Below are positions 3,458-62,522 of a stretch of DNA of 64,000 nt, in pieces. A program made the position numbers and the translations under genes. Source of the stretch: Candidatus Helarchaeota archaeon. GTDB taxonomy: Archaea; Asgardarchaeota; Lokiarchaeia; Helarchaeales; RDOG01. The DNA lies in assembly GCA_029838215.1 (NCBI GenBank), contig JALGVI010000003.1, positions 1-64,000 of the forward strand. Direction: 5' to 3'. Position 1 is the first letter of the stretch; each line of letters starts with the position of its first letter. The notes beneath the pieces are model-generated. The model ran no database searches. It saw only the letters and a list, made by a program, of their open reading frames with translations, and was not told the origin of the DNA.

Positions 3458-4735
3458 TTATTTATTGAATTTTGAACCGCAGAAACTGCAAAATACTGCC
3501 TTATCTCGATTCTTCGTTCCACAATGCACGCAAAACTTCATCCCTGATTCTTTATCATTTCTCTTTAATATTGGTCTTGTTACTCTCTCGATCTTGCTTT
3601 TTTGAATTGGCTTGGAATCAAGGCGAACCTCCTTGATAACCAATGGTGGATTTGGTCGAATGAGGTCGGGTCGTTTTGTCTTGAGAATTTTTACTATTGT
3701 ATGAGTTCGCAAATCGATTCCCACCTCTGAGCCGACTGTCAATTCCGAGAAGGGAATGAAAGAATTTGAGATCACGTAGTTGGTACCCGAAATTTGAACC
3801 ATTATCTCGTTTTTGTCTGTCTTCCGTTGAACCGTTCCCACGAGAAGTGGTTCTTTTGCTGAATTGCTGACCAACTCGAGCATCAAGTAGTTTTTTTGGG
3901 ACACCGCTACTTTACAACCCGGTTTTAATGAGTCTTCAGGTAGCCCTACGGCTGGACTAGAAATGAATTTTTTACCCGCGATTTCTACTTCATAACGTTT
4001 TTCACCGATTTTTTTAAGAATCGTTCCCAAAACCAATGGATCTTTTTTGAGGTTTTCTTGTTGAGCCCTGAATGCTTGAAGCTCCAGCTCTGCACTCGTT
4101 AGCTTATTTTCCAATTCTTGGATTTTGGTTTTTAAACGAATTATGTCCTGGTCTTTTTGTTGAAGATTTGATTGCAAGTCTTGAAATTTCTGATGCTCCA
4201 ACTTCAACTCATTTATCTTCTTTTCACTGGCAATTTTAACGTTTTCAAGGATTTCTTTTTCTTCCTTGATTCTTTGTATGTATTCTGTAAGCTTCAAGGT
4301 TTCTTCTGATAATTTTTTAATTTCCTCATCTTTATCCGCTAATCTTGCTTGATAATCCGATTGAAACATCCTGTTTTGTTCTTGAAGCTGAAGAATCTGT
4401 TGATTTAAAGATTCAATTTGACTCGTTAATTTCACGGCTTGCTGATCTGATTCTGAACTTAACATTTTAGTTTTATTTTCTAATTCCTGCTTTTCACTTT
4501 TAACAGAAATGAGTTCTCTTTGCAAGATTTGAATCTGATTCTTTAATTCTTTTACTCGTGTTTCACTTTCCGAAACAATGGCTTGATTTTTCCCTACAAG
4601 ATCATTTCTTTCCTTTTCTAAAAGAATGAGCTTTTCGGAGAGATCTTTTATCTTCTTTTTAAGTGTAGAAAGTGCCTCACTTGAACTTTCTCCAGAAGGT
4701 TTCTCCCCTGCGACGGGTGGCCGTTCTATCTCCAA
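3458..4735 (-). CDS. Long coiled-coil protein with two PAN/Rpt-like OB folds and a C-terminal zinc ribbon, no AAA domain
   Basis: About 200 aa of heptad-rich helix, then LKKDPLVLGTILKKIGEKR...LKPGCKVAV and KEPLLVGTVQ...LTVGSEVGIDLRTHTIVKIL, then CVHCG...CSFCG. No Walker A/B. Confidence 0.7.
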   Translation of the reverse strand: MEIERPPVAGEKPSGESSSEALSTLKKKIKDLSEKLILLEKERNDLVGKNQAIVSESETRVKELKNQIQILQRELISVKSEKQELENKTKMLSSESDQQAVKLTSQIESLNQQILQLQEQNRMFQSDYQARLADKDEEIKKLSEETLKLTEYIQRIKEEKEILENVKIASEKKINELKLEHQKFQDLQSNLQQKDQDIIRLKTKIQELENKLTSAELELQAFRAQQENLKKDPLVLGTILKKIGEKRYEVEIAGKKFISSPAVGLPEDSLKPGCKVAVSQKNYLMLELVSNSAKEPLLVGTVQRKTDKNEIMVQISGTNYVISNSFIPFSELTVGSEVGIDLRTHTIVKILKTKRPDLIRPNPPLVIKEVRLDSKPIQKSKIERVTRPILKRNDKESGMKFCVHCGTKNRDKAVFCSFCGSKFNK

Positions 4736-4851: not shown

Positions 4852-5043
4852 ATGACGGGCGATGAGCAAATCCAATGCATTTTCTGTGGTAAAAAGGAAA
4901 TCATTGGACAGAAGAGTATCAAATTTTACCTAAATTGGCTGGAATACGAACCCGATAAATGGGTTTGCAAGGACTGTAAGCGAAAAGAATTAGAGCCACG
5001 TTTACACTATTATAAATTAGGAATGTTTGTTAGAGGAGATTAG
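4852..5043 (+). CDS. Small C4 zinc-finger protein
   Basis: CIFCG ... CKDCK in 63 aa. Its stop overlaps the DUF655 stop. Confidence 0.6.
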   Translation: MTGDEQIQCIFCGKKEIIGQKSIKFYLNWLEYEPDKWVCKDCKRKELEPRLHYYKLGMFVRGD

Positions 5044-18153: not shown

Positions 18154-19185
18154 TTATTGTGCTAATTTTCCAGCTTTTTCATCCTTTTTTTCTTCTGCAT
18201 TAATTACGGCATATAATTTGAGCGGTTTTGCAAATTCTCGGTTGTAAACGAAGATTAGATCTTTATTCTTGACGTTTATCATCGCATCATCATCTTGGAT
18301 GATCCCATTAATCACCATTTTCATCGGATCTGCAATTCCGAAAGTCATTATTATGCGATTCTTCAATGTTCGGACCGATTCACCAGGAGTGACTGCAAAA
18401 TTTACTCCTTTTAGTCGATTTTCTCCACAGACAATGCAATTTGGATTTCTCTTGAGTGGAACGTTCGTAAATCGTTGACTCAAGGCATCATAGAAAAGAA
18501 TTTCTGACGAGGGCTGTCCAATCTTAAGAAGCAGCCTGAGAACTTCCTGTGTTTCAAGCGCTCCGATTACAAAAGACACCGTGGAAATGGAAGGAAATTT
18601 AGATGGAGGTTCTTGAATATCCTCACGTTTTTGACCCGGAGGCGTGCATTTTTTTTGAAGCCGTTCTTTTGGTATTAACGGTTGGCATTCCAAGCATGCT
18701 GTTTTAAATGGTTCTACGACTTGAATATTTCCATACCAACCATACATGCCACCATGAACTAAAGGCACGTTCTCCGAAACCGCCAATGAGTTTAACCATC
18801 TTCGTGCCTCAAAAGTATCCAATCCATCCACGTAAACTCGTGCTTGTCCATGCACGTCCCGAGTGAGATTCTCAATTTTACCGTTAATTGCCTGTATTTC
18901 AACTTCGGGATTGATTAAAGCAAGTTTTTCTCTTGCAGCTTCAACTTTTAATTTTCCGATGTCGGATTCTTGAAAAAGCAACTGACGAGATAAGTTCGAA
19001 ATTTCAACTGTATCAAAATCACAAAGAATTAATTTTCCTATTCCCATCTGCGTCAGGCTTATGGCTACAACACTTCCTAACGCTCCAACCCCTGCAATGA
19101 GCACGCAGGACTTGCTTATCTCGGTTTGATCCCAATTTTTTAATAATTCTTGCCGCGAATACCGCCCTTTATCTTCCAACCCCAT
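18154..19185 (-). CDS. Ubiquitin-activating enzyme E1 (ThiF/MoeB adenylation domain plus C-terminal UFD-like domain)
   Basis: RYSRQ, GVGALG, DTVEISNLSRQ, CLEC/CIVC Zn pairs, putative catalytic KKCT. ATG 19185 follows GGAGG; the track start is 19230. Confidence 0.9.
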   Translation of the reverse strand: MGLEDKGRYSRQELLKNWDQTEISKSCVLIAGVGALGSVVAISLTQMGIGKLILCDFDTVEISNLSRQLLFQESDIGKLKVEAAREKLALINPEVEIQAINGKIENLTRDVHGQARVYVDGLDTFEARRWLNSLAVSENVPLVHGGMYGWYGNIQVVEPFKTACLECQPLIPKERLQKKCTPPGQKREDIQEPPSKFPSISTVSFVIGALETQEVLRLLLKIGQPSSEILFYDALSQRFTNVPLKRNPNCIVCGENRLKGVNFAVTPGESVRTLKNRIIMTFGIADPMKMVINGIIQDDDAMINVKNKDLIFVYNREFAKPLKLYAVINAEEKKDEKAGKLAQ

Positions 19186-19205
19186 GCCTCCAATAGTGGT
19201 GAAGA

Positions 19206-19682
19206 TTAATCTCGTTGAACTTTTTCCCAACTTGCGTATTCAGCCGTATGTTTCCTGACTCTTTTCTCATATTCTTCCGGCTTTTTTAACAATAACTTGG
19301 CAGCTTCCCTGTTCAAGGGCGATCGGGGATTTGGAAAGTGAAGGAGATTGCGAAGCGCTTCAATGACACCCGCGATATTCATGTTTGGGGTCCAATCCTT
19401 ACCGAAAATGCCTATGCAAACACGATTGCGGATGAAGTTGGGATGAAAAATCGGAGTCAACCATTTCACTTGTGGTGGTTCGAATGGAAACTTGCGCGTG
19501 ATTTTTATTTCGATCTGAAAGACACCTCCCTCGTATAGTTCCGTCCCAATTATGAAACCCCTCCATACCCGCAAGTCATTGTTAACCGGCTTAAAGGAAG
19601 GCTCTTCTTCTTCTAAGATTTTTGCTTCTAAAACCAATCGAGAATAATAATCTTCATCAGAAAGCAAGTTGCAGAAATCCAC
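19206..19682 (-). CDS. Ubiquitin-conjugating enzyme E2 (UBC)
   Basis: YEGGVF, FPFEPPQVKW.TPIFHPNF...VCIGI...W.P, PNPRSPLN; catalytic Cys present. Alternative TTG start at 19667. Confidence 0.95.
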   Translation of the reverse strand: MDFCNLLSDEDYYSRLVLEAKILEEEEPSFKPVNNDLRVWRGFIIGTELYEGGVFQIEIKITRKFPFEPPQVKWLTPIFHPNFIRNRVCIGIFGKDWTPNMNIAGVIEALRNLLHFPNPRSPLNREAAKLLLKKPEEYEKRVRKHTAEYASWEKVQRD

Positions 19683-19917
19683 CTTCAGTTCTTGTTATCA
19701 CGTATATCCTGTCGTTGGCTTGGATGCCAGCATCTTGGAGCGTTTGTGTCTCATCTAACTCCACGCCACGAAATGCTAAGACAAAGATATTTACGGGTAT
19801 ATCTTTCTGGCGCGAGATTTCATCTTTAAGGTTTTTTACTAAAACATTTGGAGACATATCAAGGTCTAGGACATCTCCACCTATTGCTGACACGATTTTT
19901 ATGTTCATTTTTTTCAC
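19657..19917 (-). CDS. Ubiquitin-like protein with C-terminal propeptide (TRTEGG|FLQLAF)
   Basis: Beta-grasp pattern (LAFRGVELDETQTLQDAGI) and di-Gly at codons 79-80, followed by 6 residues. Confidence 0.9.
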   Translation of the reverse strand: MKKMNIKIVSAIGGDVLDLDMSPNVLVKNLKDEISRQKDIPVNIFVLAFRGVELDETQTLQDAGIQANDRIYVITRTEGGFLQLAF

Positions 19918-20036
19918 CTTTCTAAAAAAGCCTCATTCATTAGCATCTTTTCAATAATACCTATCGGCTATTATTTTTTAGTTTATTGCTTCTTGCAAGC
20001 AAGGAAAATCATTTTTCTTTTTTTTAAGAACTTCAT

Positions 20037-20276
20037 TCAAATAAGATCCCGTTGCCTGATCTTTTTCTTGCAGTTTGGACAAACCGCACGAATTTTCAAC
20101 CAATCTAACATGTGCTTTTTGTGTGCCTGTTTTCTACAATGAGGGCAGGTGACAATTTCATCATCGTCATCTTTTATTATCAAATTGCAAACAATGCACT
20201 TCTTTTTCTCATTCCAATCCCATTTTCCTACTGTTATGATATTACGGATGATAAATCTTTTTTGCGGAACGGACAT
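20037..20276 (-). CDS. Small RING-finger E3 ligase-like protein
   Basis: CIVC-x13-CPHC-x4-HKKH-x3-W-x6-CPNC; first gene of the Ub/E2/E1 run. Confidence 0.85.
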   Translation of the reverse strand: MSVPQKRFIIRNIITVGKWDWNEKKKCIVCNLIIKDDDDEIVTCPHCRKQAHKKHMLDWLKIRAVCPNCKKKIRQRDLI

Positions 20277-20410
20277 GATCTTTCATCGGCTTTCCTTTTT
20301 TAATGAGATAACAATCTTGCAATCTCACGATTGATATATAAGAAAATAAATTCAAAACTATTTAAGAATCAAGGATTCGGAATAAAGATTGAACGTAAAC
20401 GGCAAATCGT

Positions 20411-20833
20411 GTGATAATAATGCCTGAGGAGAAGAAAAAAGTTATGGAATTTGATCTGGAAGCAATAGACACACCTGCTGGTAAAGTGCCGACAATAACC
20501 AGTGTTCAACGTTTAACTGAAGCTCTAAACGCTTTAAATGATGACATGAATGAACATCGCCGGCTCATAAATGAAGCTTTAATCTCCCAGATGGGAACAT
20601 TCGAATTTGAACTTGCGAGCTTGAAGAAAATCATTTCAAAATACATTTTAAAAAACGAAGCAACAGCCTTAGGTGCTGAAAAACTAAGACAGGAAATTAT
20701 TTCCCATGATCAAAAAACGATGGAACGATTTAAAAAAATTGAAGAAAGGATGGCTGCATTTGAACAAAATATTCAGAAGAAAATCATATCTGCTTTGGAT
20801 ACCTTCATACGCAGTTTCCGAAGTAAATCCTGA
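20411..20833 (+). CDS. Coiled-coil hypothetical protein inside the Ub-ESCRT locus
   Basis: 140-aa helical ORF between the RING gene and vps25; GTG start. Confidence 0.7.
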   Translation: MIIMPEEKKKVMEFDLEAIDTPAGKVPTITSVQRLTEALNALNDDMNEHRRLINEALISQMGTFEFELASLKKIISKYILKNEATALGAEKLRQEIISHDQKTMERFKKIEERMAAFEQNIQKKIISALDTFIRSFRSKS

Positions 20834-20838
20834 AAAAT

Positions 20839-21732
20839 TTAACCGTCCTCGAACTTTAACTTGATGCTTCTTTTTGTTTTATTTATCCATTGGGCTTTCT
20901 TTTTCTTGATTAGTATTTCAAGAATCTTGCGGATGTCTTGAGGAGGAAGGGATCCGAACCCACGATCGACTTCATCTCCAATTTCTTTGATGTCCATCAT
21001 CGTGAGAATATCGGTTCCATTCCAGAAACAGTATTCGAACAATTTATTTGCCCATTCCTCCAAGGATTTCCAATAAATCCTGAGTCTTGTCTTTTCAGGA
21101 TTAATCCACTCCCCATAATCGGTATTTGCCAGATCTTCAAGGATCTCACGCAAGTACTTCTCACGTTCACGCAAGTATTTAAACGGTGGTTCAGTGGATT
21201 TTGTCAGAAAATCAAAGATATGAAGCAAATAAACGCGAGAATAGTCTAAAATGAAAGCACTCCACTCTTGGATGAATTGTTCTCGCTCCTTATCTGTCTT
21301 ATAAAAGAACATCCATGGTTTTAGCTTTTCATTAAAAGCCCAAGGATATGTTTCTTTTAGTTTCTTCTCTAGTTCTTCAAATACTTTATCTTTTTTGCTT
21401 TCTGCAAGCTTTTCCAATTCCTCTTCTAATTTAAATTGATATCTGAGGCGTAATTTCCGCTCAAACTCCTTTTTATAACGTTCGAATTCTCTACGAAGTC
21501 TTTGCTCAACTTTTTTCTCAATTGCTTTTAGGATTTCGGGATCTATTTGCTCCATTTTCGTTTTTAAGTTGATTCGTTGCTTCATTTGTTCGGAATCTCT
21601 TGAAATTTTCTTTGAGATCTTCATCGCTTCTTTTTCTAATTCGTCGATGCTTTTTTCTCCTTGTTTTTTATTTTTTTCGGGTTCGCGTTCCATTAGTGCC
21701 ATCGCAAGTCCCTCAAACACTCCCAAATTCAT
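20839..21732 (-). CDS. vps25: ESCRT-II Vps25 (EAP20)-like tandem winged-helix protein with N-terminal coiled-coil extension
   Basis: YPW...REQFIQEWSAFIL, PPF, GEWINPEKTRLRIYWKSLEEWANKLFEY, KILEILIKKKKA...IKLKF resemble eukaryotic Vps25; directly downstream of vps4. Confidence 0.8.
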   Translation of the reverse strand: MNLGVFEGLAMALMEREPEKNKKQGEKSIDELEKEAMKISKKISRDSEQMKQRINLKTKMEQIDPEILKAIEKKVEQRLRREFERYKKEFERKLRLRYQFKLEEELEKLAESKKDKVFEELEKKLKETYPWAFNEKLKPWMFFYKTDKEREQFIQEWSAFILDYSRVYLLHIFDFLTKSTEPPFKYLREREKYLREILEDLANTDYGEWINPEKTRLRIYWKSLEEWANKLFEYCFWNGTDILTMMDIKEIGDEVDRGFGSLPPQDIRKILEILIKKKKAQWINKTKRSIKLKFEDG

Positions 21733-22918
21733 TGGCCCAATCTTCGTATTTCTTCAATTCTTTCTTTGAAACTGATGGTTTCACGCCTTTCAAGGATTCT
21801 AGAAAATCTTGTTGAATGACAGGACGTGGCGTGGCATCTTGTAAATCACCGCTCATGTCCAATTCACGAATGGGGTTCATTATGCTTTCCCTGCAGACAA
21901 GTGCGATATCCGATCCCGAATACCCGTCCGTAATGAAGGCAAGCTCTTCAAAGTTAACGGCTTCGTCCAAATCTACTCCTTTCGTATGTAATTGAAATAA
22001 AACTTTTCTCGCTTCAAATTCTGGAAGACCTATGTAAATTCTTTTTTCGAACCGACGTCGCATTGCCGCATCTATTTCCCAAGGCGTGTTCGTGGCTCCC
22101 AACATTACTATCTGTTGTCCTTCACTTTTCATTCCATCGATCTCTTGGAGTAATTGTGTCTTGATGCGTCTTTCTCCACCACCTTCAGAACCCGATCCTC
22201 CCCTTGAGGTAGTTAGAGAATCGATTTCATCCATGAATATCAGGGCGGGTGAATTCTGGCGGGCAAGATTGAAAAGCTCTTTAATGAGACGTTCGGATTC
22301 TCCTAACCATTTCGAAACAAGTGAAGCCGCATCAGCATTGAAAAACGTGGCATCGCATTCATTTGCTACGGCTTTTGCGATCATGGTCTTCCCGCATCCT
22401 GGAGGACCGTATAAAAGAATTCCCCTCCAAGGCTTGCGTGCACCCTTGAATAAATCAGGTCTGACCATGGGTAAAATTATGGCTTCTCGAAGGGCTTGTT
22501 TTGCTGCCTCCAAGTTGGCAACATCTTCCCACTTGATATCTGGTTTTTCGGTAACAATTGTATCTGCTATTGCGGCCGTTAATTTTGGGTCGCCTTTTAA
22601 CTTGAGCTTCTTTTTCTTTTTAGGTTTATCTTCGTCCCCTTCTTCCGAATCGTCCTCGAATTCTTCTTCGATATCCTCTTCAAAATCCGGTTCTTCGATT
22701 CCTCGTAATTGCTTGGCTCTTTTAATATATGCGGCGATTTTTTCCTCAATTACCGGTCTTATTTGTGCATTCCTGTTGATTCTTATGAATTGAGCCAAAC
22801 AATCAGCGGCTTCTATGTATTTTTTCTGCGCCTCTTCATATTGCTGTAAATCATCTAATTCTTTCGCTTTTTTTGCCAGCTTTTGTCCTGTTTTGAGTAA
22901 TTTCTGATACGAAGACAT
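21713..22918 (-). CDS. vps4: Vps4 AAA ATPase with N-terminal MIT domain
   Basis: MIT helices; EKPDIKWEDVANLEAAKQALREAIILP, GPPGCGKT, LVSKWLGESE, IFMDEID, RRFEKRIYI, C-terminal EFGS. Confidence 0.95.
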   Translation of the reverse strand: MSSYQKLLKTGQKLAKKAKELDDLQQYEEAQKKYIEAADCLAQFIRINRNAQIRPVIEEKIAAYIKRAKQLRGIEEPDFEEDIEEEFEDDSEEGDEDKPKKKKKLKLKGDPKLTAAIADTIVTEKPDIKWEDVANLEAAKQALREAIILPMVRPDLFKGARKPWRGILLYGPPGCGKTMIAKAVANECDATFFNADAASLVSKWLGESERLIKELFNLARQNSPALIFMDEIDSLTTSRGGSGSEGGGERRIKTQLLQEIDGMKSEGQQIVMLGATNTPWEIDAAMRRRFEKRIYIGLPEFEARKVLFQLHTKGVDLDEAVNFEELAFITDGYSGSDIALVCRESIMNPIRELDMSGDLQDATPRPVIQQDFLESLKGVKPSVSKKELKKYEDWANEFGSV

Positions 22919-23018
22919 GGTTTTTCTCCAGCAAGACCTTATTCTAATAAATCACTTTAATCGCTTATTTATAATATTAATGAAACGGCTAAAAAATGAA
23001 AATTTTATATGCATTTTT

Positions 23019-24593
23019 TTAAAGTGGGTTCTCGCACATGAACGGCTTCACCATCTCCGTGACTGTCTCACAAATAGAACCTAACTCTTCTTTAACGATT
23101 TTATCCAGAGTGTCATGTTCATCAAGAAGGTAATAAGGACAGCCGATCCAAGAAATAACTGGAACTCCCGATGCAACAACGTATCCCGCGGCATCCGAAG
23201 TCGGTGCAGTTGCAATTAAATCAGACGGAATAGGGAGTGTTATCTTGGAAGGTTTTTTCCTCAGAGCATTGACTGCAGTGGCGATTGTGAGCGGCTTATT
23301 CGACGTGAACATCACGGTCAATGCAAGGTTGTCTGTCTTGACATATTCTCGGTCTTGTTCTTGGACCTCGATTCCCCCTAGATGCTCAAGAGTAATTAGA
23401 ATTTTAGTTTTTTGCATTAAATCTGGATGCTGTTTCGCAAACTTAAATGCTCCTTGGGATCCGTAGAAATGCCCCGCATCCACGACGAAAACTATCGTCC
23501 GTGCTCTCTTCTCCTTAGGAATACTTGCCCATATTTTTACTTGAGCCAACACTTGAGCAACACCTGATCCATCTTCGACCGCACCTTGAAATGGCGCATC
23601 GTGATGGGATGTAATCAACACGATCTCCTCGGACATGCCGGGTAAGACTCCCCAAATGTTTGACATATTTCCCGGTTTCACGGTACCCTCCAGCTTGAGC
23701 GTAGCGTTGGCACCTTCTTTGGCTTTCTCTCGGAGGTCTTCACCATCAAATTTTCCAACCCAGAGACCCGGCATCGGTTTCATTATTCCATCATAAGGAC
23801 CATAATGAGAATTGGAATTGGACGGTTGGTTCTTGAGAATGAGACAGATCCCTTTTGCTCCCTGCTTGAACGCCTGCCAATAAACGTCATTAGATGGTGC
23901 ATTATCCACGGTTGAACCTCCGATGAAATTTTGGCGTACAAAATTTAAATATTGCCCTGTCTTAGAAGTTATCTGACGTGCAGGATCCGATACGATATAC
24001 GTAGCCCCAACTATCTTTAAAGCCTTTATTAAACGCCCAATCGATATGTATGGAAAGGGAACATCAGCCACGACGATTTTCCCCTCTACGTCTACCGATT
24101 TAAAATCCTTTTTTTTGCCTTCACCGACATATGCGAGAGGTGCAGTTATGCCGTCATTTGACGTGAAACCAGTATTAAGAATAAAAAAGCTGGGAATTTT
24201 TTGCCCGCCTATCGTTAAAGACCATCTATCTGCATTCCAAATCTTAATCGGAATGGGATCTACTGTTATATCCTGCAATCCCAATTCTTTGAATTTGGAA
24301 GCGACCCATTTTTCTGCTTGATGTCCTTCAGCGGTGCCAGGTCGTCGGTGAGGTGTCTGACAAATCTCAGAAATCCAATTATAAATCTCTGTTGAATTCG
24401 GATATTTGATAGGATGATTATATTCCGGAAAATTTTTTAATAGTTTTTTAGCTCTTCGTTTTGCCATCCATATGCTCGGCAATTTTTTTAAAAATCGAAT
24501 AATGATACCGCTTGGCTTGGTGCTCACCCGATCTTCCCAAATGTCTTCAATTTCTTCTGCATTGTCCGTAAAAAACACCTCAGAATATTTCAT
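23019..24593 (-). CDS. PA-domain M28-like peptidase with non-canonical metal ligands
   Basis: HRRPGT, PA insert, TSHHDA, GAVEDGSG, DAGHFYGS, LEHLG, DTLDKI; no signal peptide. Confidence 0.75.
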   Translation of the reverse strand: MKYSEVFFTDNAEEIEDIWEDRVSTKPSGIIIRFLKKLPSIWMAKRRAKKLLKNFPEYNHPIKYPNSTEIYNWISEICQTPHRRPGTAEGHQAEKWVASKFKELGLQDITVDPIPIKIWNADRWSLTIGGQKIPSFFILNTGFTSNDGITAPLAYVGEGKKKDFKSVDVEGKIVVADVPFPYISIGRLIKALKIVGATYIVSDPARQITSKTGQYLNFVRQNFIGGSTVDNAPSNDVYWQAFKQGAKGICLILKNQPSNSNSHYGPYDGIMKPMPGLWVGKFDGEDLREKAKEGANATLKLEGTVKPGNMSNIWGVLPGMSEEIVLITSHHDAPFQGAVEDGSGVAQVLAQVKIWASIPKEKRARTIVFVVDAGHFYGSQGAFKFAKQHPDLMQKTKILITLEHLGGIEVQEQDREYVKTDNLALTVMFTSNKPLTIATAVNALRKKPSKITLPIPSDLIATAPTSDAAGYVVASGVPVISWIGCPYYLLDEHDTLDKIVKEELGSICETVTEMVKPFMCENPL

Positions 24594-24624
24594 GATATTT
24601 GTGAGTCTATGCTTGCATTCATTT

Positions 24625-24951
24625 TCAATTTGATAGAATTTTTTCTTTTAATTCTAGGAGTTTATTTTCAACTATATCCCAAATGATCTCTACATCTATA
24701 CCAAAATATGCATGAATAAGAATATCCCTCAATCCTGCTATCTTTCTCCATTCCACATCAGGATTGCTTCTTTTCACATTTTCTGGTAGGAATTTGATTG
24801 CCTCTCCTATTATCTCCAAATTTCTCGTTACTGCATCTTGAATTAATTCATTATCTGCAAATTTATCATAACTGATATTATTCGTATATTTCTTAATCTT
24901 ACGTATTGCCTCAAGAATATCCTTGAGATACGTTTTATATGCCCGCGGCAT
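24625..24951 (-). CDS. HEPN (HepT/DUF86) ribonuclease toxin
   Basis: DAVTRNLEIIGEA, WRKIAGLRDILIHAYFG (Rx4H). Confidence 0.92.
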   Translation of the reverse strand: MPRAYKTYLKDILEAIRKIKKYTNNISYDKFADNELIQDAVTRNLEIIGEAIKFLPENVKRSNPDVEWRKIAGLRDILIHAYFGIDVEIIWDIVENKLLELKEKILSN

Positions 24952-25246
24952 ATTTTACATTCTCCAAAATATAGACTTTCAAATCGGGTTTTATTGCCTC
25001 AATAACCACGAGATCAACTTTATAATCAAGTAGATCTTCTAAAAAGAACTTGAGATCCATGTAATTGTCAAAAGTTTTCATTCCCTTCTTAAATCCTACT
25101 ATTATATCTATATCGCTTTCTGGTTTTTGTTCGTTTCTGATATACGAACCAAAAATGCCAATCTTCTCGGCTCCAAATTGCCTAATTTTTTCTCTATTTT
25201 TCTCTATTCTTTCCAAGATCTCAATTGATGTTAACATGCTTTTCAT
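24935..25246 (-). CDS. Minimal nucleotidyltransferase (MNT/MntA) antitoxin
   Basis: GIFGSYIRNEQKPESDIDI (GSx10DxD), KVDLV; overlaps the HEPN gene. Confidence 0.92.
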   Translation of the reverse strand: MKSMLTSIEILERIEKNREKIRQFGAEKIGIFGSYIRNEQKPESDIDIIVGFKKGMKTFDNYMDLKFFLEDLLDYKVDLVVIEAIKPDLKVYILENVKYAAGI

Positions 25247-25309
25247 CCTTTGTTTGTAGAGAAGAACATTTTCATTCTAATTTAATTTACGAAAAATAAA
25301 TATTTAATC

Positions 25310-25457
25310 GTTTTTTAGCTCTTCATTTTGCTATCTACATGCGGGGTAATTTTTTTAAAAATCGAACAATGGTGCCACTTAGTTTTGTATTGAACCGATC
25401 TTCCCACATGTCTTCAATTTCTTCTGCATTGTCCACAAAAAACACCTCAGAATATTT
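25310..25457 (-). pseudogene. Decayed duplicate of the first ~50 codons of the M28-like peptidase
   Basis: Aligns with 24443-24590. It translates KYSEVFFVDNAEEIEDMWEDRFNTKLSGTIVRFLKKLPRM*IAK*RAKK, with two in-frame stops and no in-frame ATG. Confidence 0.85.
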
Positions 25458-25612
25458 TCAAAAAACATGTAAGCATACTAAAATATTTATCTAAGCAATT
25501 AAATTATAGACAATGAACCACATATGACCTCGAAGATGTAAATTCCTTCGCGAGAATTCAGAGAAAAACATCACGAACTGAATTGGTCATGAACATGAAG
25601 TAGTTGATAGAA

Positions 25613-26227
25613 ATGGGTGCATTCGAGAAATTCGTCAAATGGTTAAAAGGCGGTAATAATCTCAATAAGATCATCATTAATATTGACATATTCACCCGTA
25701 GTTTAGCACGCCAACGTAAAGAACTGGAAAAACAAGCACGCGATAACTTCCGGATGGCAAAAAAATATCGGCTTGAAGGAAACAACCAGGCTGCAAGAAT
25801 GTACATGGAACATCGCGTGCGCTTCCAAAAATGGGCACTCGGCGTGGATTCATATCGCCTGCATATTGTTGGCTTACTTCAAAAATTGAAACAGGCTCAA
25901 GCTCATAATGAGATGGCTAAAACTCTAATTCAGATCAACCGCGTTTTGGGATCACTTAAACAGAATGTTCAAATTCCCCGACTTTCGGATCTAATGGCAA
26001 GCATTGATCAGACCTTCAATCAATTTGATTTGGCTGGAGAGTTCATTGATGAAGGCATGGAACAAATGGTCGTAAATACTGAAGTCACTGATACCGATAT
26101 AAATCAAGGAATGGCTGAGTTGGACGCGGAAATCGGAATGGAGACGGGTCAAGTCTTGACCAGTCCGAGTTCTGGTCGAATCTCTAAATTAGAAGAAGAA
26201 ATTAGAAAATTAAAGGAGGGACGTTAA
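25613..26227 (+). CDS. ESCRT-III Snf7-family protein, Vps2/24/46-like class
   Basis: Amphipathic N-terminus, helical hairpin, D...E.M segment and terminal MIM1-like KLEEEIRKLK. The track start is TTG 25604. Confidence 0.85.
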   Translation: MGAFEKFVKWLKGGNNLNKIIINIDIFTRSLARQRKELEKQARDNFRMAKKYRLEGNNQAARMYMEHRVRFQKWALGVDSYRLHIVGLLQKLKQAQAHNEMAKTLIQINRVLGSLKQNVQIPRLSDLMASIDQTFNQFDLAGEFIDEGMEQMVVNTEVTDTDINQGMAELDAEIGMETGQVLTSPSSGRISKLEEEIRKLKEGR

Positions 26228-26847
26228 TGGGCTTCCTCAATAAGTTATTTCCAAAAAAAGCTAAAGAGCGAGACCAAATTATTGCAGAATTACGGCAATC
26301 GATTAATCGAATGGGCTTGCGATCACGAAAATTCGAAGCCAATGCTGTAAAACATCGCCAAAAAGCAAAAAAATACATGAAAACAAACAAGGCACTGGCA
26401 AAACAATATATTGCACGTTACAACAAGGCACTAAAAACTCAGAAACGTTATGATTCCTTCATTTCAAAGCTTGAAGACAGGATCTTTGCTCTTGAACAGG
26501 CAGAAGACATTAATGACTTGGGAAAAGCAATGGAAACTGCAACGCGAGAATTGAATCGGGCTAGATCTCTCATCACGCCACAGCGTGCCATGGAAATTAT
26601 GGCTCAATCTGAACACGCAATGGAAGATATTGACCGCGTGGGTGAGATTTTCGCCGAAGAAGATGGTGATTTCGAGCTGGATGAAGAGGCTGAAGCTGAA
26701 TTTGAAGCACTTGAAGCCGAGATGCTGATGGAAGATATGGAAGGTCTTCCTGAAATTCCTGATGAACCGGTGACCACTCATAAAGCAAAAACTAGCAAGC
26801 AAAAGAAAGAACTCGAAGAACTGAAACGTTCAATTGACATTGATTAA
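26227..26847 (+). CDS. ESCRT-III Snf7-family protein, Vps20/32/60-like class
   Basis: MGFLNKLF amphipathic helix, KxxAKxY...K, ELEAEFEAL-like helix and MIM2-like LPEIPDEP; 1-nt overlap with the upstream gene. Confidence 0.88.
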   Translation: MGFLNKLFPKKAKERDQIIAELRQSINRMGLRSRKFEANAVKHRQKAKKYMKTNKALAKQYIARYNKALKTQKRYDSFISKLEDRIFALEQAEDINDLGKAMETATRELNRARSLITPQRAMEIMAQSEHAMEDIDRVGEIFAEEDGDFELDEEAEAEFEALEAEMLMEDMEGLPEIPDEPVTTHKAKTSKQKKELEELKRSIDID

Positions 26848-61406: not shown

Positions 61407-62522
61407 TTGACTGGAAAAAAACGAAAAATTCGAGAAATTTCAATTAAACGCGATGATATTAGTGTAGGATATTCGAAAATATCTGAAAGTCCTGGTGTCG
61501 ATGAGGTAGTCATAAAACCCATTGGCTTCCCTTTGATTGCTCTAGGGGAAGAAAGACAATTCATACGAACTGATAATCCAAAACTCTTTAATTCGTATGC
61601 TATTGCTCAGTGGAGTGGAACTTACGTCACGGAAGGCACGTATATTTTTGATCAATTTCTATTTCCTGATTTTGCATTTGAGATAATTTCTGTCAAGCCT
61701 GGACCGGGTAAAATTACATCTGGCACTTCTATTGTGCTTCAGTCAAAGGAAAAGCTCATTCGCAAGGAATTTCCTAATGTTAGCTTTGACGATATCATCG
61801 GTAATCATGAAGCAAAGAGAAAATGTCAAATTATAATGAAGTACTTACAAGATCCTGACCGATTTGGAGAATGGATTCCGAAAAATGTCCTATTTTATGG
61901 ACACTCCGGAACAGGAAAAACCATGACTGCAAAGGCTCTTGCAAATGCAACTAACGTTCCGATATTCCTGATGAGAGCAACGGATTTAATCGGTTTACAT
62001 GTTGGAGATGGCGCACGAAAGGTACATAACTTATATAGTGAAGCTTCAGAATCCAGTCCTTGCATCATTTTTATTGACGAATTGGATGCGATAGGTTTAG
62101 ATCGAAAATACCAATCCATTCGTGGTGACGTGGCTGAAGTCGTGAATGCCCTTTTATCAGAAATGGATGGAATTACTAACCAATCAGGAATAGTTACAAT
62201 AGGTGCCACCAATACACCTGCTTTACTTGATGATAGCATTAAAAACCGATTTGAATCTTTGATAGAATTCAAGATCTTTGATGACAATGAGCGATATGAG
62301 TTCCTTGAAAAGTATTCAAGGCGACTTCCCATGCCATTCAAAATGGACTTGCATCGCTTGACGAACATGACAAAGAATTTATCCGGACGAGAATTAAAAG
62401 AAAAAATTCTTAAGAATGCATTACATCTTGCCATCCTTGAAGATAAGGATGAAATCAATGAGGAAATCATCCAGAAGGTCATTATTCACGTGAAAACCTC
62501 AAAAAATCCAATGTTCACGTGA
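61407..62522 (+). CDS. Archaeal AAA+ ATPase (COG1223-type)
   Basis: DDIIG...AKRKC, WIPKNVLFYGHSGTGKT, LIGLHVGDG, FIDELD, GATN. Confidence 0.9.
   Translation: MTGKKRKIREISIKRDDISVGYSKISESPGVDEVVIKPIGFPLIALGEERQFIRTDNPKLFNSYAIAQWSGTYVTEGTYIFDQFLFPDFAFEIISVKPGPGKITSGTSIVLQSKEKLIRKEFPNVSFDDIIGNHEAKRKCQIIMKYLQDPDRFGEWIPKNVLFYGHSGTGKTMTAKALANATNVPIFLMRATDLIGLHVGDGARKVHNLYSEASESSPCIIFIDELDAIGLDRKYQSIRGDVAEVVNALLSEMDGITNQSGIVTIGATNTPALLDDSIKNRFESLIEFKIFDDNERYEFLEKYSRRLPMPFKMDLHRLTNMTKNLSGRELKEKILKNALHLAILEDKDEINEEIIQKVIIHVKTSKNPMFT

Follow-up and report, generated by a model that had tools for sequence, protein, structure and literature searches.

The gene at positions 3458 to 4735 on the minus strand of a 64,000-nucleotide stretch of Candidatus Helarchaeota DNA (hereafter the window) encodes a protein of 425 residues, in which a coiled coil, two tandem OB folds (OB1 and OB2), a linker and a C4 zinc ribbon follow one another. 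The OB folds were found to be of PAN-type coiled coil-OB ancestry, with a duplication of the OB fold, and the AAA+ motor of PAN is absent. With a probability of roughly 0.4, we read the protein as a hexameric double ring from which three arms, each some 30 nm long, and six zinc ribbons on tethers would extend, and which would hold or deliver client proteins without ATP. The features of the gene are the following.

3458..4735 (-), whole gene, 425 aa, TTG start; from the open frame, AlphaFold2 and an orthologue of equal length
4049..4684 (-), coiled coil, residues 18-229; from AlphaFold2 helices, briefly interrupted around 90-95
4199..4261 (-), invariant run of 21 residues, 159-179; the longest identical stretch between the two orthologues
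4037..4039 (-), Pro233 at the coiled coil-OB junction; from alignments with PAN and the orthologue
3863..4048 (-), OB1, PAN-type, residues 230-291; from the fold match to 2wg5 and from TIGR01242
3677..3862 (-), OB2, residues 292-353, internal repeat of OB1; from the repeat score and PF16450 below its cut-off
3539..3676 (-), basic, Pro-rich, disordered linker, residues 354-399; pLDDT 33-49
3461..3538 (-), C4 zinc ribbon, residues 400-425; PF13240 above its cut-off

A PAN-type module with a duplicated OB fold

The AlphaFold2 model of the protein (mean pLDDT 70.8) consists of two helices (residues 18-89 and 96-229), a pair of five-stranded barrels (234-290 and 298-352) and a terminal ribbon, with low confidence at 354-397. 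The coiled coil of about 200 residues described in the first-pass annotation was recovered at about 210, both from these helices and from heptad periodicity, the hydrophobic period along the helix being 3.50-3.52 residues in both orthologues; its length when fully extended comes to about 30 nm. The PAN-like junction motifs quoted in that annotation are present in the open reading frame, and the tandem second OB fold that it claimed is evident from the two barrels and from the local alignment of OB1 with OB2, which scores 76 against 22.9 ± 4.4 for shuffled sequences (0 of 2000 shuffles as high). At the C-terminus, the predicted ribbon was retrieved by Pfam as PF13240, above its cut-off, at residues 401-422, with the spacing C-x2-C-x3-N-x6-C-x2-C (C402, C405, N409, C416 and C419). 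The net charge in the two orthologues is +7/+6 for the linker and +5/+6 for the ribbon.

The claimed lack of Walker motifs and of an HbYX tail likewise held in each of the searches applied. No AAA family matches the protein in Pfam or NCBIfam, the reading frame does not figure in a genome-wide census of ATPases with Walker A and Walker B motifs, and the C-terminus reads -FNK (-KFK in the orthologue) with no HbYX tail, the host PAN ending in -LYT. Only 2 bases separate the stop codon from that of a convergent zinc alcohol dehydrogenase gene, and thus no room is left for an AAA+ domain downstream.

Homology to the PAN/Rpt coiled coil-OB module, as previously proposed, is supported by sequence profiles and fold searches alike. 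Archaeal PAN ranked first in a phmmer search of the PDB (E 1.8e-6, residues 216-305), and a profile built from the four OB copies of the two orthologues gave M. jannaschii PAN-N as its best PDB match (E 3e-7), along with A. fulgidus PAN-N and Rpt4 (E 1.3e-6); no ARC/Mpa chain was found up to E 10 in the PDB profile searches that retrieved PAN and Rpt. In NCBIfam, TIGR01242 (PAN) aligned over residues 200-292 with E 5e-12 (45 bits against a cut-off of 500) and TIGR03689 (ARC/Mpa) over 191-359 with E 3e-8 (32.8 bits against a cut-off of 504.75), while in Pfam OB2 matched PF16450 below the cut-off (E 0.0017) and PF17758 had no match in the protein. The closest relative within the genome is the host PAN (E 1.5e-8), to which OB1 is 31% identical. 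In terms of shape, Foldseek placed the Mpa/ARC double-OB interdomain on top, followed by PAN-N and the Rpts, and a fold search with the model of residues 205-360 was headed by PAN-N (2wg5; Z 10.7, rmsd 1.3 Å, 58 residues aligned), with Mpa at Z 9.5 and 3h43 at Z 9.2. All 10 of the shape matches listed from the Atlas carry PF16450, and a search of the ESM Atlas by features returned no match.

In PAN, the junction proline is a cis/trans switch which allows six chains to pair as three coiled coils. Pro233 aligns with this proline, which precedes the first OB strand of PAN, and is retained in the orthologue; the OB2 counterpart is not retained there. Since the PDB profiles find PAN and Rpt and no ARC/Mpa, the double OB seems to have arisen through its own duplication of a PAN-type OB and not by descent from ARC, a matter that the tree presented below cannot settle.

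OB folds and zinc ribbons frequently bind nucleic acids, and the protein could accordingly be pictured as a ring whose OB folds, basic linker and zinc ribbon bind RNA or single-stranded DNA, the coiled coil serving as a spacer. The positive charges of linker and ribbon speak for such a ring, as do the ribosomal S17, IF1A and cold-shock OBs that form the next-best folds at Z 7-8. However, the PAN/Mpa OBs span Z 8.1-10.7 and outscore all nucleic-acid OBs, the best unrelated OB reaching Z 8.0, which also answers the earlier concern that unrelated OB families might match better than PAN/ARC. The poor conservation of the linker (23% identity between the orthologues) counts against nucleic-acid binding as well, and we know of no proteasomal OB fold that binds nucleic acids; this alternative is considered quite improbable.

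A phmmer hint that residues 137-180 represent a copy of the PAN coiled coil was rejected with a profile of 33 PAN coiled coils, on which these residues score below zero and below unrelated coiled coils. Because the coiled coil has no match to the PAN profile, the transfer of the chaperone function of PAN to this protein is weakened, and a PAN-derived chaperone surface may not be retained in the long coiled coil.

Orthologue, selection and genomic setting

The orthologue P0003, located on a contig from another sample, has 425 residues, 53% identity and the same architecture, and starts at the equivalent TTG. Both loci share the order L21e, Rpo4, DUF655, small zinc finger, the gene itself, convergent alcohol dehydrogenase, CxxCxxCC and CoA ligase. 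Synonymous sites are saturated between the two orthologues, with dN values of 0.07 for the zinc ribbon, 0.25-0.45 for the coiled coil, 0.36-0.37 for the OBs and 1.22 for the linker, and on these sequence comparisons purifying selection acts on all folded parts. Identity is highest in the zinc ribbon (84%), reaches 73% in parts of the coiled coil and is 54-55% in the OBs. Residues 159-179 are identical in the orthologue, 21 in a row (shuffle p 0.0004), and are put forward as a candidate partner-binding site.

It had been cautioned that the gene could be a mis-assembled PAN. A broken or mis-assembled PAN, or a decaying pseudogene, would be in keeping with the very narrow distribution of the gene and with the fact that no independent reads span it. 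Among the sequencing runs listed for the gene none was RNA, and their contigs reach no further than short stretches near its 5' end, too little to bear on integrity or habitat. The artefact explanation was nevertheless rejected: the orthologue from another sample repeats the length, the architecture and the gene order, synonymous sites are saturated with dN at 0.07-0.45 in the folded parts, and a separate, intact PAN lies on another contig. An artefact is therefore hardly credible.

Beyond P0003, no further orthologue was found in 5.8 billion clusters (word-seeded, a second search covering up to 8000 candidates), among 1.84 billion representatives, where the remaining matches cover the zinc ribbon only, or in 161 genomes of the class, the order, GTDB contigs and JGI metagenomes, by searches that can miss distant members. 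One genome of the same family (G006) is without the gene at the syntenic place. The full architecture is rare; it recurs in the syntenic orthologue, and these searches, which include the survey of Asgard genomes suggested in the first-pass annotation, show it in two lineages only.

The host genome has a size of 3.6 Mb and is 94% complete, with the gene on contig C112; its ribosomal protein S7 is closest to that of Ca. Helarchaeota Hel_GB_A (69%) and then to Hel_GB_B (64%), and MCR alpha was not found in the assembly at this completeness. Since proteins of its class also bear the labels Promethearchaeota or Lokiarchaeota, we take the host to be an Asgard archaeon of Helarchaeota type. A single full PAN of 437 residues, with TIGR01242 over its cut-off, is encoded on contig C130 (L002:6260-7573, minus strand); its small helical subdomain is longer than in other PANs, and alignments with relatives often stop close to residue 383. 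Seven proteasome-subunit (PF00227) matches are distributed over contigs C64, C85, C159 and C165, two of them side by side on C85, as against the single full PAN.

The conserved neighbours of the gene are the L21e-Rpo4-DUF655 operon, the alcohol dehydrogenase and the following small zinc-finger gene.

4852..5043 (+), divergent zinc-finger-like ORF of 63 aa; no Pfam match

This ORF contains two CxxC pairs and a WLEYEP-like motif and occurs in every one of the order's 7 genomes, where its neighbours vary. As it lies between the gene and the L21e-Rpo4-DUF655 operon in both lineages, the gene probably has its own promoter; a promoter/terminator scan, of a kind not suited to archaea, remained at chance level. 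The window had also been described as rich in proteostasis genes, and ubiquitin, E1, E2, a RING-like ORF, Vps4, ESCRT-II, Snf7, PAC2 and JAB genes are indeed present, but they lie 13-55 kb away and outside the conserved neighbourhood, so that linkage to the gene did not stand; no proteostasis gene is found among the conserved neighbours at the two orthologous loci. Ubiquitin, E2, E1, the small RING-like ORF, ESCRT-II, Vps4 and Snf7 form one cluster at 18157-26847, which is the usual Asgard ubiquitin-ESCRT locus. Its ubiquitin has 80 residues, with a six-residue extension after the GG. At 61407-62522 (+), the window encodes an AAA ATPase whose N-terminal and lid domains are those of PRS2 (PF23900 and PF23902).

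Predicted ring assembly and proposed function

Self-assembly was modelled with four copies of residues 205-354 in three runs. The score was 0.51 (median of 0.56, 0.20 and 0.51) against 0.00 for the best control; the score mark was attained for 20 of 30 solved homo-pairs and for 1 of 23 single chains, counts that are only approximate for this job. The runs share at least 91% of contacts at a pLDDT of at least 75. Contacts are made helix to helix, OB1 to OB1 and OB2 to OB2, and neighbours are touched on both sides of the chain: the helix of a given chain pairs with one of the neighbours, OB1 offers residues 233-236 on one face and 253-260 on the other, and OB2 brings 294-299 together with 316-324. 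In the model, this pattern is that of a stacked double ring like Mpa's and not of a three-chain pseudo-hexamer, and the prediction thus lends support to the ring-like self-assembly assumed earlier. The pass of the four-copy model may also stem from likeness to the solved PAN and Mpa rings. By analogy, a hexamer in the form of a trimer of dimers is most likely: isolated PAN coiled coil-OB fragments are hexamers (PMC6006169), and Mpa has a double OB ring (PMC8142254).

The favoured reading takes the N-terminal module of archaeal PAN, to which homology is shown, as the point of origin. From it, the AAA+ motor and HbYX tail would have been lost, the OB duplicated, the coiled coil lengthened and the zinc ribbon added, in an order that we infer. 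Pairs of chains are predicted to form the long coiled-coil arms, and OB1 and OB2 the two stacked rings, the six-fold state being drawn by analogy and going beyond the four copies modelled; six flexible zinc-ribbon tails would hang at the place of the motor. Such an assembly could act as an ATP-independent, multivalent holdase or adaptor, whose arms, probably including the invariant residues 159-179, would capture unfolded or tagged proteins, and whose ribbons would dock the ring on a partner, for example the real unfoldase of the cell. Neither the unfolding of substrates nor an HbYX-type opening of the 20S gate would be within its reach. Precedents exist in PAN coiled coils, which keep proteins from aggregating with no need of ATP hydrolysis and are believed to bind substrates (PMC6006169), and in Mpa, which binds the Pup tag on its coiled coil (PMC8142254). 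The proposal gains support because the junction proline is kept in the OB1 of both orthologues and because the host keeps an intact PAN and the seven proteasome-subunit matches; it is weakened by the one run of three that scored 0.20, by the absence of a conserved proteostasis neighbour and by the occurrence in only two lineages.

Doubtful, though still to be reckoned with, is a non-proteolytic scaffold or tether, in which a co-opted PAN OB ring with three 30-nm arms and six zinc ribbons would link two structures. Several observations agree with it: the coiled coil is about four times as long as PAN's and has no match to the PAN coiled-coil profile, conservation in the zinc ribbon (84%) and in some stretches of the coiled coil (73%) exceeds that of the OBs, the OB branches are very long, and the gene is unlinked to proteasome genes. 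Against this stand the retention of the PAN ring fold and junction proline, the repeated, independent keeping of motorless PAN-N genes in the class, which suggests a use in proteostasis, and the ATP-independent activity of the PAN coiled coil-OB fragment (PMC6006169).

Among the options raised in the first-pass annotation, namely a ring with PAN, a tether and a chaperone, co-assembly with PAN looks weakest from the sequence comparisons, owing to the 31% identity of OB1 to the host PAN and its very long branch (more than 2 changes per column). A non-catalytic PAN subunit or inhibitor would join PAN rings via the coiled coil-OB interface and tune or poison the unfoldase; the same module drives the assembly of PAN, and no other protein of the genome is as closely related as the host PAN. 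Besides the distance of OB1, however, OB2 would in such a ring occupy the place of its neighbours' AAA ring, and the other two motorless types, by contrast, remain near their PANs. A role of this kind is held to be unlikely, and the ATP-independent holdase or adaptor is retained as the preferred reading.

Motorless PAN N-domain genes and comparison with known systems

A search for PAN OBs across 400 Asgard genomes revealed extra copies in the host's class, including true PAN paralogues and two further motorless designs. Design (i) comprises proteins of 206 and 236 residues in which the PAN coiled coil and a single OB are joined to an unknown domain of about 80 residues. It is present in two genomes, both from a sister family within the order, and the adjacent gene, of 396 aa, is conserved and has no Pfam or NCBIfam match. 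Design (ii), from Promethearchaeota (proteins P0074-P0193), has 130-150 residues with the coiled coil, an OB and a short C-terminal helix of its own; it often occurs as tandem pairs, in genomes that keep a full PAN.

L005:1354-1974 (+), design (i) gene
L010:165-875 (-), design (i) gene
L017:902-1728, design (ii) locus
L022:1020-1833, design (ii) locus
L023:1447-2355, design (ii) locus

The profile of design (ii) retrieved 132 clusters, and about 100 of the 120 listed carry a tail of their own and not the PAN linker. Its occurrence is patchy, with about 5 of 89 well-assembled genomes of its family among the matches listed. In two genomes a design (ii) pair adjoins a restriction-modification-like methylase gene, and this neighbour, together with the patchy range, hints at mobile carriage. 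Many Lokiarchaeia genomes (L019, L020, L024, L025, L018 and L027) have two or three full-length PAN paralogues, some of the class's paralogues with strongly diverged N-domains.

In the tree, design (i) nests with the PANs of its own family and most of design (ii) forms a starred clade, both staying close to their PANs, unlike OB1. Joining designs (i) and (ii) was rejected (p-AU 8e-156) and joining OB1 with design (i) marginally so (0.043), for groups named after the first tree was seen. OB1 and OB2 as one clade were neither recovered nor rejected (p-AU 0.38), and neither could be placed, their branches exceeding 2 changes per column over 97 columns. Judged from these placements, the motor was lost at least two times independently, and probably three times. 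A literature search in which few subscription papers were covered gave no description of ATPase-less PAN N-domain genes.

To our knowledge, the PAN/ARC N-domain has been studied only within the ATPase or in engineered fragments. The existence of natural genes for the module on its own indicates that cells use the coiled coil-OB ring separately, and makes the role of this ring by itself directly testable. The double OB is apparently a second, independent arrival at the architecture of Mpa, and the occurrence of no fewer than three motorless designs within a single Asgard class is relevant to the pre-eukaryotic addition of non-catalytic subunits or adaptors to proteasome motors. The wider proposition, which we regard as rather unlikely, is that Lokiarchaeia repeatedly turned the PAN substrate-entry module into non-catalytic proteostasis factors, of which the 425-residue protein would be the most elaborate, passing clients to PAN or Cdc48 or assembling with PAN. 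If true, prokaryotic relatives of eukaryotes would possess a proteasome adaptor of a natural and so far unstudied kind, the significance being limited in range by the two lineages from which the exact architecture is known.

With regard to known systems, the PAN N-domain or subcomplex I (3H43, 2WG5; TIGR01242, PF16450) has in common with the protein a coiled coil, the junction proline and a PAN-type OB, and the modelled helix pairing and OB-OB ring contacts are alike. PAN-N is, however, a laboratory fragment of a full ATPase, whereas the present protein is a natural stand-alone gene product with two OBs, a zinc ribbon and a coiled coil of some 210 residues outside the PAN profile. ARC/Mpa (2WFW, 3FP9, 3M9B; TIGR03689) also combines a coiled coil with two tandem OBs, and its OB1-OB1 and OB2-OB2 stacking is likewise predicted here, but it possesses an AAA+ domain and a GQYL tail, neither of which the protein has. 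Rpt1-6 contain the coiled coil-OB module too, in ATPases that form a heterohexamer and have a single OB each. In the NZF (RanBP2-type) consensus, a Trp stands two positions ahead of the first Cys, and the second Cys is followed by Thr-Phe; the ribbon matches its Cys spacing but has Lys400 and Gly-Thr at these places, Pfam assigns it to PF13240 and not to zf-RanBP, and a canonical ubiquitin-binding NZF was therefore rejected.

PafE/Bpa, PbaB and PA26/PA28 are ring-type proteasome-related activators that similarly have no ATPase, but they are of unrelated folds and act through C-terminal gate-opening tails, which the protein does not have. The short Promethearchaeota PAN-N proteins come with the PAN coiled coil-OB and no AAA+ or HbYX, as it does, and differ in their 130-150 residues, single OB, C-terminal helix and nearness to the PAN of the host lineage. 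Overall, the protein is not a member of PAN or ARC/Mpa, as seen from the absence of their AAA+ domain and tail; it is built from their N-terminal module and probably assembles as that module does.
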